Source: Chitinophagaceae bacterium (GTDB taxonomy: Bacteria > Bacteroidota > Bacteroidia > Chitinophagales > Chitinophagaceae). Taken from it: 64,000 nt of DNA. The stretch lies in the NCBI GenBank assembly GCA_024643645.1, contig JAHEMN010000003.1:1409-65408 (forward strand), in the 5' to 3' direction. A program made the position numbers and the translations under genes. Below the pieces are notes generated by a model. That model did not search any database and was not told where the DNA came from. It saw only the letters and a list, made by a program, of their open reading frames with translations. Of the stretch, positions 52,632 to 64,000 are shown in pieces (position 1 is the first letter of the stretch; the number at the start of each line of letters is the position of its first letter).

Positions 52632-53675
52632 TTAATCCATCACTTCATATATCGTTACAGGATTTGTTTTATTCTTTAAACTAACATCACCCACTTTTGA
52701 ACATTTAAATGATTCCTTAATTTTTTCGTATGAATTGTCATTAATGATGATCTGACCCGGGTTTGCAACAGTTTGTAATCGTTGTGCCACATTCACCACA
52801 TCACCAATAACGGTATAATCTAAACGACGGAGATTAGCAGAACCAATATTTCCTGAGATCATTTCTCCGCTGTTTATTCCTATTGAAACTTTGGGTGTAA
52901 ATGAAACATTATCTGATAAAGTTGGAAGTGCTTCAATTTGTGCCCTTACTGCAAGACAGGCATCAACAGCCCTGTCCAAATGATAATCACCACGAAAAAC
53001 AGCCATGATCGCATCACCGATAAACTTATCAATATAACCCTCTTGTGCTATTATTTCTTTTACGATCACATCAAAGTAATTATTTAGTAGTTTAACAACA
53101 TTATCGGCGGTTTCCTTTTCACTGATGGAAGTAAAGCTACATATATCAATAAATGCGACTGTCGCTTCAATTGTTTCATTGGCCGACAAAGAAGTTTCAA
53201 ATTCACGGCTACCCATAAAATTTAATACCGTTTCATCCACATACATCTTCAGAATATTATTCTCTTTGATCGCAGCCATTGTTTCCCGCATTTGCCTGAC
53301 ATGCTTCAATGTTTTTTCCATCGTTAATTCCAGGTCTTCAAAATTTACCGGCTTGGTAATAAAATCAAAAGCACCTCTGTTCATGGCTGTACGAAGATTT
53401 TCCATATCACCATAGGCTGATACAATTACAGATTTCAGTAAACTATTTTGCTCACTTAGTTTTGTCAATAATGTAAGGCCATCCATCTCAGGCATATTAA
53501 TATCACTCAGGATCACATCCACATCTTCATGAAGTTCTAATTGCTCTAATGCATGCTTTCCATTTACAGCGAAAATAAATTCATATTTATTCTCCCGTAT
53601 CTTCTGCCTGAATTTTTGTTTGATCAATACTTCCAGATCCGTTTCATCATCTACCACTAATATTTTTGCCATCAC
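52632..53675 (-). CDS. REC + class III adenylate cyclase
   Basis: SDINMP receiver; FIDICSFT, DKFIGD, DYTVIGDVVNVAQR. Confidence 0.92.
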   Translation of the reverse strand: MMAKILVVDDETDLEVLIKQKFRQKIRENKYEFIFAVNGKHALEQLELHEDVDVILSDINMPEMDGLTLLTKLSEQNSLLKSVIVSAYGDMENLRTAMNRGAFDFITKPVNFEDLELTMEKTLKHVRQMRETMAAIKENNILKMYVDETVLNFMGSREFETSLSANETIEATVAFIDICSFTSISEKETADNVVKLLNNYFDVIVKEIIAQEGYIDKFIGDAIMAVFRGDYHLDRAVDACLAVRAQIEALPTLSDNVSFTPKVSIGINSGEMISGNIGSANLRRLDYTVIGDVVNVAQRLQTVANPGQIIINDNSYEKIKESFKCSKVGDVSLKNKTNPVTIYEVMD

Positions 53676-54046
53676 TGAATTGATTTTAATTTTTCCTTTA
53701 ATAGTGAAAATTCTACAGGCTTTGTAAGAAAATCATCAGCTCCCAATTTCATTGCTGTTTCATAATTCTCTTTATCACCATAAGCGGTGATCATCATTAC
53801 CCTTGGCGGAGGGGCATTGTATTTTTGTTTTATTTTACCCAACAGGTCCAATCCACTCATACCCGGCATATTGATATCAGAAAGGATCAATACTGCTTCA
53901 TGATTATTCTCATTCAGGTAAACCAGGGCTTCTTCACCGGAAAAAGCAAATACAAAATCAATTTCATTGTTTTTGATCTCCTTCCGAAATCGTTGCTCAA
54001 ATAAAATTTTTACATCCTGTTCATCATCAACTACTAAAATTTTCAT
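53672..54046 (-). CDS. Single-domain response regulator
   Basis: ILVVDD, SDINMP, MITAYG, TKPV. Confidence 0.93.
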   Translation of the reverse strand: MKILVVDDEQDVKILFEQRFRKEIKNNEIDFVFAFSGEEALVYLNENNHEAVLILSDINMPGMSGLDLLGKIKQKYNAPPPRVMMITAYGDKENYETAMKLGADDFLTKPVEFSLLKEKLKSIQ

Positions 54047-54061
54047 TTTTTTGATTTATGC

Positions 54062-62704: not shown

Positions 62705-62722
62705 TACAATAATATTTATTAT

Positions 62723-64000
62723 TTATAGTGGCAGAAGGATACAAAATTTAACTCCCGGCTGCCCTTCGTTATTATTTATAATGATCTCCCCACCATGTGC
62801 TTTCACAATATCATAACTCAACGATAATCCCAAACCTGTTCCCTGCCCGGTTGGTTTGGTGGTAAAGAATGGTTGAAATATTTTTTCTTTTACTGTTTCA
62901 GGAATTCCATTACCATTATCTGCAACACTGATCTCTAATTTACCATTTATTTTTTTAGTGCTGATCGTAACTGTTGGGGTATAACCTGAAATGTTTTGTT
63001 TTGCTTTTTCACTCACTGCATAGAATGCATTATTGATCAGATTCAGCAATACCCTTCCAAAATCCTGTGGCACAACATTCAGTTTTGGAATTGTGGAATC
63101 AAAATCAGTTTTCATCGTTGCATTGAATGATTTGTCTTTTGCTCTTAAACCATGATAAGCTAATCTTAAATATTCATCGCACAAGGCATTGATATCTGTG
63201 GGTTCTATTATACCATTGCTGCTGCGGCTGTGTTGCAGCATACCTTTAATAATGGCATCGGCTCTTTTGCCATGGTGATGTATTTTTTCTAAATTTTGTT
63301 TTACATCTGCTGCAATGTTTTTTGCTTCATTAATATCTCCTTTATCTAACTCATCCTTCATTTCATCAATCAACTCATTGCTTACTTCACTGAAGTTGTT
63401 TACAAAATTTAACGGGTTTTGAATTTCATGTGCAATGCCTGCGGTGAGTTCGCCAAGGCTGGCCATTTTTTCGGATTGGATAAGTTGGGTTTGGGTGGCT
63501 TTTAAATTGATCAATGTTTTTTCCAGTACTTTATTAGCTTTTCGTTTTTGGCGATTGTTTCGAAAAAGAATCAATGCAATGATGAGCAGCACTCCCAACC
63601 CTGCTGCAAATCCGTAAAGCCTGAGGCGATTTTCTTTTTTTAACTGCTTTTCCACTATCTGTTGTTGGTGTTGCTGTTCTTCAGATATTGTTTTTTGGAG
63701 TTCCTGTATCTTTTCTGATCCATATAGAGAATCAGTGGCAGCCAGTTGCATCTTCAAATAATAATAAGCCAGCCCTTTGTCCTTATGTTCAAATTCATCT
63801 GCAAGCAACTTACTATTATCAATTATTGCGTTACTGTAATTAACTTTTAAGGCAGCGTCAAGGCCTTTTTTGGCATAGTAAATTACTGAATCAGGCTGAT
63901 TCAGCTTTTTAAAGAAACCGGCGATGATGAAGCAAGCATCGGGTGTGCCAATCATGTCATTGTAAACATCATACGTTTCAATGCTTTGATGTAAATATTG
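62723..64000 (-). CDS. TPR-domain membrane histidine kinase 4, 5'-truncated by window edge
   Basis: Frame open to 64000; TM helix, same H-box and HATPase. Confidence 0.92.
   Translation of the reverse strand, partial: [425 protein letters not shown]
62835..63073. repeat. 239-bp near-identical block (copy C)
   Basis: Aligns without gaps to copies A and B. Confidence 0.9.

Follow-up and report, generated by a model that had tools for sequence, protein, structure and literature searches.

In a 64,000-nucleotide (nt) stretch of DNA from a Chitinophagaceae bacterium (contig JAHEMN010000003.1, from a sediment metagenome; hereafter the window), five histidine kinases of one subfamily are encoded in tandem with a stand-alone receiver (REC) protein and a REC-adenylate cyclase. 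This array covers positions 52632-64000. We read it not as a His-Asp-His-Asp relay but as a branched many-to-one two-component module, in which the kinases would converge on the REC/REC-cyclase pair, and we put the probability of this reading at roughly 0.58. Convergence on the pair is the most economical reading and is partly supported. Indeed, several kinases are encoded with one receiver set, the unit contains no other receiver, and the kinases share their specificity residues, all of which are marks of a multikinase network (the concept is treated in two reviews, PMC12471899 and PMC8175716). A GC content of about 35% and the closest database relatives, Chitinophagaceae and Ferruginibacter, assign the window to Bacteroidota, and a sequencing-run search found the sequence only in DNA runs from sediment.

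Five kinases are encoded with a single receiver set

Nine closely spaced genes, all on the minus strand, run from position 64000 down to 51143:

62723-64000, continuing past the window end, minus strand: membrane kinase K1; the 425 visible amino acids (aa) comprise the membrane-proximal sensor part, one membrane helix, HisKA and HATPase_c
60653-62704, minus strand: kinase K2, 683 aa, with a signal peptide, a periplasmic TPR region, one membrane helix, HisKA and HATPase_c
58701-60641, minus strand: kinase K3, 646 aa, with a TPR region, one membrane helix, HisKA and HATPase_c
56652-58694, minus strand: kinase K4, 680 aa, with a TPR region, one membrane helix, HisKA and HATPase_c
56231-56503, minus strand: SCO4226-like protein (PF14026), 90 aa
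54062-56092, minus strand: cytoplasmic kinase K5, 676 aa, with two sensor modules of about 190 aa, HisKA and HATPase_c
53672-54046, minus strand: stand-alone REC, 124 aa
52632-53672, minus strand: REC-linker-class IIIb adenylate cyclase, 346 aa from its ATG (Guanylate_cyc, E = 1.3e-23)
51143-52609, minus strand: fusion of HD, YitT membrane and DUF2179 domains, 22 nt downstream of the cyclase gene

From K1 to the HD-YitT-DUF2179 gene, the intergenic gaps are 18, 11, 6, 148, 138, 15, -1 and 22 nt, and the REC stop codon and the cyclase ATG share one nucleotide (TGATG). Besides the 90-aa SCO4226-like gene, no further open reading frame of at least 85 aa lies within the array. The tiny gaps suggest that the array genes are transcribed together. 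Gene spacing is what this suggestion is drawn from, because the sigma-70 consensus used in the promoter and terminator scan is unsuited to Bacteroidota promoters; the matches in that scan were at chance level. No intergenic terminator-like site was found on the coding strand, and one minus-strand match falls inside K1. None of the proteins of the locus scored above the cut-off of an equivalog or curated NCBIfam model. In the source samples, one contig of 1326 nt extends 786 nt past position 64000. Its last 44 nt match the 3' end of K3, which hints that K1 is preceded by a sixth kinase gene.

The layout given in the original prediction was confirmed, with some corrections. The five kinases are co-oriented, four are membrane-anchored (one truncated) and one is cytoplasmic, and the stand-alone REC and the REC-cyclase are the only receivers encoded in 52632-64000. 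Its statement that no DNA-binding regulator is present holds inside these coordinates, where no DNA-binding protein is encoded, but not for the window, which contains a LytTR regulator at 50390-51130 and a REC-Crp fusion at 8457-9512. Four REC-containing proteins had been counted; the window holds six. The word phosphorelay has to be given up: no gene of 51143-64000, and none of the called genes of four related loci (L163-L166), matched a histidine phosphotransfer (Hpt) domain. Therefore, the module is not a phosphorelay.

The kinases differ in their sensors and share their catalytic core

All five kinases carry an exact 23-residue H-box motif, in which the eleventh position is alanine or valine. 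This motif is absent elsewhere in the six frames of the window, and the other two HisKA kinases of the window have ordinary SHE(F/L)RTPLT H-boxes, unlike those of the array. The H-box His is residue 190 of visible K1, 452 of K2, 412 of K3 and 436 of both K4 and K5. Pfam HisKA matches were obtained for K1, K3, K4 and K5; K2 aligned in the same place and is identical there except for a change from alanine to valine. HATPase_c matched in all five (E = 1e-21 to 1e-23), and the N, G1, F and G2 boxes are intact (among them LNL and GTGLGLS). The sequence HEIQN (HExxN) is found at the His in all five kinases. An E/DxxT/N motif next to the H-box His marks phosphatase activity.

K2-K4 combine Pfam TPR matches with an N-terminal hydrophobic signal and a single membrane helix ahead of the kinase, and K5 is without a hydrophobic segment (maximum Kyte-Doolittle value 1.18). 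The visible part of K1 has a membrane helix and no Pfam TPR match; it is assigned to the TPR kinases because it is 33-40% identical to the part next to the membrane in TPR kinases of other genomes. Among the five kinases the cores are 66-78% identical and the sensor parts only 11-33%. Orthologues of the K2 and K3 sensors in locus L164 are 50% and 46% identical to them, whereas paralogous sensors reach at most 28%. Therefore, the sensor inputs are old and distinct.

The docking helix is conserved by selection, not by gene conversion

The positions that specify partner choice were taken from the titles of PDB entries, returned by the fold search, that describe the rewiring of HK853-RR468. They are H+8, H+11 and H+15 of the kinase and positions 13, 14, 17 and 21 in alpha-1 of the receiver. 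In K1-K5 the three kinase positions are F, N and V. Helix 1 of the dimerisation and histidine phosphotransfer (DHp) domain, 30 residues long, is identical through H+15:

63383-63472, minus strand: DHp helix 1 of K1, His codon at 63428-63430
61304-61393, minus strand: DHp helix 1 of K2, His codon at 61349-61351
59361-59450, minus strand: DHp helix 1 of K3, His codon at 59406-59408
57342-57431, minus strand: DHp helix 1 of K4, His codon at 57387-57389
54740-54829, minus strand: DHp helix 1 of K5, His codon at 54785-54787
58762-59061, minus strand: gene-conversion tract in the ATPase domain of K3, with copies at 60705-61004 (K2) and 62784-63083 (K1)

Between paralogues, helix 1 differs at 12-25 of its 90 nt (13-28%), nearly always synonymously, and at 0-2 amino acids. 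Since the DNA has diverged while the protein has been kept, this pattern indicates that the identity of the docking helix is kept by purifying selection and not by gene conversion. Elsewhere, the sequences indicate that gene conversion does occur among the array kinases, as a mosaic. The ATPase tract of K1, K2 and K3 has 94-95% DNA identity over 300 nt (88-100% in 90-nt windows) between flanks at 60-80%, and K1 and K4 share a separate short tract at 88-90% DNA identity.

Both receivers and the cyclase keep their functional residues

The acidic pair, the phospho-acceptor Asp, the Thr/Ser, the aromatic switch residue and the Lys are all present in the stand-alone REC (D7, D8, D57, T87, F106, K109) as well as in the receiver of the cyclase (D8, D9, D57, S85, F104, K107). 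The two receivers are 46% identical to each other, compared to 24-31% between them and the other aligned receivers of the window, so that within the window each is the nearest relative of the other. At the RR468 rewiring positions they read D-V-L-R and D-L-L-K in our own alignment to RR468; the other aligned window receivers read H-I-L-T, L-A-I-Y and S-I-L-x. Across Bacteroidota, both array receivers are 52-97% conserved.

The best solved relatives of the cyclase are CyaB of P. aeruginosa (3r5g, E = 2e-26) and the photoactivated cyclase OaPAC (E = 3e-25). Residues D176, K216, D220, T287, N294 and R298 align with CyaB residue by residue. They comprise the metal-binding Asp pair (D176, D220), the substrate Lys (K216), the Thr that replaces an Asp (T287) and the transition-state Asn and Arg (N294, R298), all in a single chain as in cyclases of the homodimer type. 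K216 and T287 form the Lys/Thr pair of class IIIb; therefore, cAMP is the expected product, and the enzyme likely makes cAMP. The alignment to OaPAC (query residues 127-345) takes in the linker, which corresponds to the coiled coil and handle of OaPAC.

The REC/REC-cyclase pair is conserved with kinases of this subfamily across Bacteroidota

A search with the cyclase only, restricted to one genome per species, gave 21 loci with upstream sequence. In all 21 a stand-alone REC immediately precedes the REC-cyclase (in L013 the REC was cut by the open-reading-frame caller, yet it is present). A co-oriented kinase of the array subfamily lies upstream of the REC in every one of them, within 150 nt in 20 loci and at 1.2 kb in L013. 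The taxa include Chitinophagaceae, Cyclobacteriaceae, Emticicia, Spirosoma, Mucilaginibacter, Hymenobacter, Algoriphagus and Flavobacteriaceae. No protein of the locus is more strongly conserved than the REC-cyclase, which is 63-91% identical across families. These loci have from one to at least four kinases each, with unrelated sensors, and the 30-residue helix is nearly invariant among them. One of them, L014 of the cultured Mucilaginibacter sp. McL0603, belongs to a complete genome and shows this layout with four kinases. Because kinases were not used to find the cyclase loci, this list of H-boxes is unbiased. L008, the closest locus by cyclase identity (91%), has a different kinase set without TPR kinases, so the inputs turn over and the output pair is kept. 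The receiver-proximal kinase also varies by locus: it may be K5-like, a TPR kinase, a HAMP kinase, a small type with several membrane helices, or the type B described below.

When metagenomes were searched with the kinase core, 80 loci were obtained, of which 26 are arrays with a resolved end and the rest are cut off or ambiguous. Arrays of up to at least seven kinases were found (L098, L106), and about three quarters of the resolved arrays (19/26) end in the REC pair. Two loci found through K5 orthologues, L163 and L166, match the full layout of the window, in the order TPR kinases, SnoaL_3 kinase, SCO4226-like protein, K5, REC, REC-cyclase, HD-YitT and LytTR block; L165 departs from this layout and has a HAMP kinase and the REC pair at its end. 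Among 114 complete kinases of the subfamily, the sensors are TPR in 55, Reg_prop with Y_Y_Y in 11, 7TMR-DISM in 7, SnoaL_3 in 4 and GAF in 3; the remaining sensors gave no Pfam match. In L019 and L020, further single RECs lie between the kinases.

Gene neighbourhoods in related genomes indicate that cAMP genes cluster around the kinase arrays.

Large cyclases were seen beside arrays or REC-cyclase loci in L156 (7242-9065, a cyclase-TPR protein) and L164 (17582-20830, a Reg_prop/Y_Y_Y-cyclase). L010 encodes a 1690-aa protein with cyclase similarity (11424-16496), and in L100 a cyclic-nucleotide (cNMP)-binding protein directly follows a subfamily kinase.

K5 has a repeated sensor module and a small partner gene

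The K5 sensor (54890-56092, minus strand) consists of two copies of a module of about 190 aa, and K5 orthologues are common, with sensor identities of 54-88%. The module has no Pfam match, and its profile retrieved nothing below E = 0.05 from the PDB sequences. It has a coiled-coil linker (...TYTRFLDLQKAEAQAREAQIEAALERVR...) and a GAF/PAS-like domain. A single-sequence AlphaFold model of the K5 sensor was discarded for its predicted local distance difference test score (pLDDT) of 43.5. With an alignment of 40 sequences, the pLDDT was 80, and each module is modelled as a long helix and a GAF/PAS-like alpha/beta domain on a helical spine that runs into the DHp domain. In fold, the whole K5 chain best matched full-length bacteriophytochromes, and its kinase core best matched HK853, WalK, ZraS and LvrB. 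Elsewhere the module is repeated five to seven times in kinases of L003 (391-5070), L008 (3-7768) and L012, and at least 17 tandem copies occur in a single Lutimonas protein that exceeds 3320 aa (L017, 11468-21427).

In each of the five genomes examined (5/5), the SCO4226-like gene is the immediate upstream neighbour of the K5 orthologue, and its protein is 70-73% conserved. From this constant position, the protein is probably an accessory or co-sensor of K5. Its orthologues in the related loci are as follows:

L163, 9608-9880: SCO4226-like protein
L164, 9622-9867: SCO4226-like protein
L165, 9613-9939: SCO4226-like protein
L166, 9609-9881: SCO4226-like protein

Type-B relatives occur with other outputs

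A second group of kinases, type B, has a 23-residue helix that is nearly identical to the docking helix of the array. This helix was seen together with extra single RECs in loci of the Algoriphagus type, next to REC-cyclases in one Spirochaetia and one Methylobacterium locus, and with REC-SpoIIE phosphatases in Bacteroidales. Related cores also stand beside REC-SpoIIE in Dehalococcoidia and others. In the REC-SpoIIE (PP2C) loci with a type-B kinase (L026, L028, L036, L051), the receiver is 53-69% identical to that of the cyclase, and the neighbouring kinase core is 40-50% identical. These loci differ in their output, a phosphatase that presumably acts by partner switching, and usually have one kinase, not an array. 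A Chlamydiales protein has the architecture REC-REC-SpoIIE, with both receivers fused to the output, and this favours a joint function of the single REC and the REC-output protein.

A branched module is weighed against its alternatives

In the proposed mechanism, at least five kinases would each be tuned to an input of their own, four through periplasmic TPR sensors and one through cytoplasmic tandem GAF/PAS-like modules and the SCO4226-like protein. All of them would phosphorylate the two co-translated receivers through one invariant docking surface and, as bifunctional HExxN kinases, would also dephosphorylate both receivers in the absence of a stimulus. Once the receiver of the REC-cyclase is phosphorylated, the helical linker, which is homologous to the coiled coil and handle of the photoactivated cyclases, would transmit this to the homodimeric class IIIb cyclase, change its geometry and so set the level of cAMP. 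The stand-alone REC may compete for phosphoryl groups, or may partner the cyclase's receiver or the kinases, and would in this way adjust gain and timing.

Several observations weigh against convergence on the pair. Seven of the 26 resolved arrays end otherwise (L095, L100, L112, L117, L119, L142, L156), and L164, found through K5, is an array of nine kinases with no adjacent REC pair. Such satellite arrays mean that adjacency is not obligatory and that other partners are possible. The type-B helix pairs with REC-SpoIIE elsewhere; therefore, identity of the helix alone does not define the partner. The single RECs fall into two subtypes that do not track kinase type (A versus B) cleanly, with few independent changes. 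Within the array, the helix-2 position approximately equivalent to D297 of HK853 is H in K1-K3 and F in K4 and K5. Helix 2 is otherwise nearly identical in the array, apart from two further changes in K2, in which it is most divergent (KRAGAIVKS, HSGASS). Finally, the order of K1-K3 depends on metagenome assembly through stretches that are 92-100% identical.

Fast turnover of the kinase content upstream of the REC pair, as in L008 with no TPR kinases, and the occurrence of satellite arrays would fit a system in which only the receiver-proximal kinase (here K5) partners REC and REC-cyclase, the TPR kinases being accumulated tandem duplicates with partners elsewhere or none dedicated. However, the proximal kinase is not of a fixed type between loci, every array kinase keeps the docking helix under purifying selection, the arrays encode no other receiver, and the tiny gaps suggest co-transcription; we consider this explanation unlikely. 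A further possibility concerns the H-box itself, which might be identical because of concerted evolution or a structural constraint on the subfamily (e.g., dimerisation) and not because of a shared partner. The conversion mosaic is clear, both in the ATPase tract of about 300 nt in K1-K3, at 92-100% DNA identity, and in the K1/K4 tract, and the helix is nearly unchanged in type-B kinases with other outputs. Yet the DNA of helix 1 has not been homogenised, and its protein sequence is held in unlinked genomes of different families. Conversion therefore cannot explain the identity of the helix, although a constraint from dimerisation is compatible with a common partner. We give little credence to this explanation.

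The roles within the pair could also be distributed differently. The stand-alone REC might be the main output, like CheY or DivK, with the cyclase as a side branch or phosphate sink; or most kinases might act mainly as phosphatases beside a single driver kinase. The single REC matches the cyclase in conservation and is always encoded first, extra single RECs stand between the kinases of L019 and L020, a second trio in the window (see below) also has a single REC ahead of its cyclase, and the HExxN motif of all five kinases would suit the phosphatase variant. On the other hand, the REC-cyclase is conserved above all other proteins of the locus and keeps all its catalytic residues, the 1-nt overlap and the fusion of the REC-REC-output type speak for joint action of the two receivers as a unit, and we judge either variant quite improbable. 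An assembly artefact, in which repeats had joined kinases from different places or strains into a partly chimeric array, is suggested by same-sample contigs that break at the kinase cores, where word depth is 324 compared to about 8 in unique parts. Against it, each unique sensor is at single-copy depth in two samples, independent contigs bridge every gene junction (although they cannot order the near-identical 3' ends), and arrays of this kind also stand on long contigs (1.27 Mb, 1.22 Mb and 348 kb) of other genomes. At most, the order of K1-K3 would be permuted, and an artefact of this kind is hardly credible.

The branched reading upholds part of the original prediction, a receptor array converging on cAMP. 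The conserved layout, the F, N and V residues of all kinases, the likeness of the receivers and the class IIIb Lys/Thr pair speak for it, whereas about a quarter of the resolved arrays are without the REC pair. The shared H-box had been put forward as evidence of a common partner; the shared F, N and V positions uphold this in part, but it is weaker than claimed, as the type-B helix goes with REC-SpoIIE. Likeness to a chemoreceptor set amounts to an analogy only, since no CheA, CheW or MCP domains occur in the array or its neighbours, and the array has no relation to chemosensory arrays.

Other signalling genes of the window

Outside the array, the window contains the following genes:

49348-51130, plus strand: LytS-type kinase and LytTR DNA-binding response regulator (LytTR 50390-51130), about 1.5 kb outside the array coordinates
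39678-48023, plus strand: second kinase-REC-cyclase trio, with a 2075-aa hybrid kinase containing nine GAF domains, a 127-aa REC and a GAF-cyclase, separated by gaps of 18 and 36 nt
8457-9512, minus strand: fusion of REC, a cNMP-binding domain and a Crp-type helix-turn-helix, 351 aa; the gene overlaps that of a PAS-HisKA kinase (9509-10747, minus strand)

The REC-Crp fusion is a candidate for a transcription factor that responds to cAMP and is at the same time subject to two-component control. It sits among nos, cbb3-oxidase and hemerythrin/ScdA genes, and because of these surroundings it could instead be Fnr/Dnr-like. The second trio has no Hpt protein, and its GAF-cyclase is without a receiver of its own; therefore, the single REC of the trio may act on the cyclase by contact. 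The HD-YitT-DUF2179 protein, whose YitT part has five transmembrane segments, adjoins the module in many Chitinophagaceae-type loci and is encoded by two separate genes in L014, L103, L110 and L127. It is a possible cAMP-linked effector or phosphodiesterase. Positions 1-33750 further encode a sigma-70 factor, parts of a cbb3-type cytochrome oxidase, accessory proteins of nitrous-oxide reductase (NosD, a nos propeller), two ScdA/hemerythrin proteins, SRP54 and TrmD, and a DUF4331 gene is apparently split in two (32470-33750).

Relation to known systems and significance

In Caulobacter, the HisKA kinases DivJ and PleC act on the co-transcribed DivK and PleD, and DivK modulates the kinases. We regard this as the closest analogy to the array, as bifunctional HisKA kinases act there on a co-transcribed pair of a stand-alone receiver and a receiver-cyclase. 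PleD differs in that it makes cyclic di-GMP via GGDEF and has a second pseudo-receiver, whereas the predicted output of the array is a class III adenylate cyclase. DivJ and PleC are two kinases, encoded elsewhere and spatially separated, whereas the arrays bring together five to nine or more.

Many-to-one signalling is also known from KinA-E acting on Spo0F in B. subtilis, LuxN, LuxQ and CqsS acting on LuxU in Vibrio, and GacS/RetS and HptB-HsbR in Pseudomonas. In all of these networks, as proposed here, varied sensors converge on one receiver or transfer protein through a balance of kinase and phosphatase activities. These networks, however, are true phosphorelays (Spo0B, LuxU, HptB) with scattered kinases, and their output is transcription or partner switching; the array has no Hpt protein, its kinases are in tandem, and its output would be a second messenger.

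The cyclase shares the metal-binding Asp pair and the conserved Lys, Thr, Asn and Arg with the class IIIb cyclases CyaB, OaPAC and bPAC. Those enzymes have MASE2 or BLUF as the regulatory domain, whereas the array cyclase has a phosphorylatable receiver. CyaC of cyanobacteria and ACR of Dictyostelium are class III cyclases that contain receivers. As proposed for the array, a receiver governs a class III cyclase in them within two-component signalling (for ACR, see PMC3009899). They are single large hybrids with a kinase domain of their own, whereas the array kinases are separate, multiple and exchangeable. In the literature searched, which included work on cyclase linkers, we found no description of this locus, which is not proof that none exists, and no study on what cAMP does in Bacteroidota.

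The array is real, conserved and apparently uncharacterised, and is best read as a multikinase two-component network with second-messenger output. Known many-to-one networks are few model cases whose kinases are few and scattered; here they are found in one probable operon that is conserved across the phylum. The natural range of one to nine or more kinases makes it a system in which to study how partner specificity constrains evolution and how a single output is decided among bifunctional kinases. It also draws attention to uncharacterised parts, namely the repeat sensor of about 190 aa, the SCO4226-like partner and the HD-YitT-DUF2179 neighbour, and raises the question of the role of cAMP in Bacteroidota. 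In a broader and more tentative form, to which we give somewhat less than even odds, the module would be a hub of free-living Bacteroidota across the phylum. Dozens of kinases per genome, in main and satellite arrays and of at least six sensor classes, would all charge and discharge a single REC/REC-cyclase pair through one frozen docking helix, with cAMP as the integrated read-out of the surroundings. If this is true, the extreme conservation of the helix and the receivers would follow from the many-to-one wiring, in which neither side can change alone without breaking the others.

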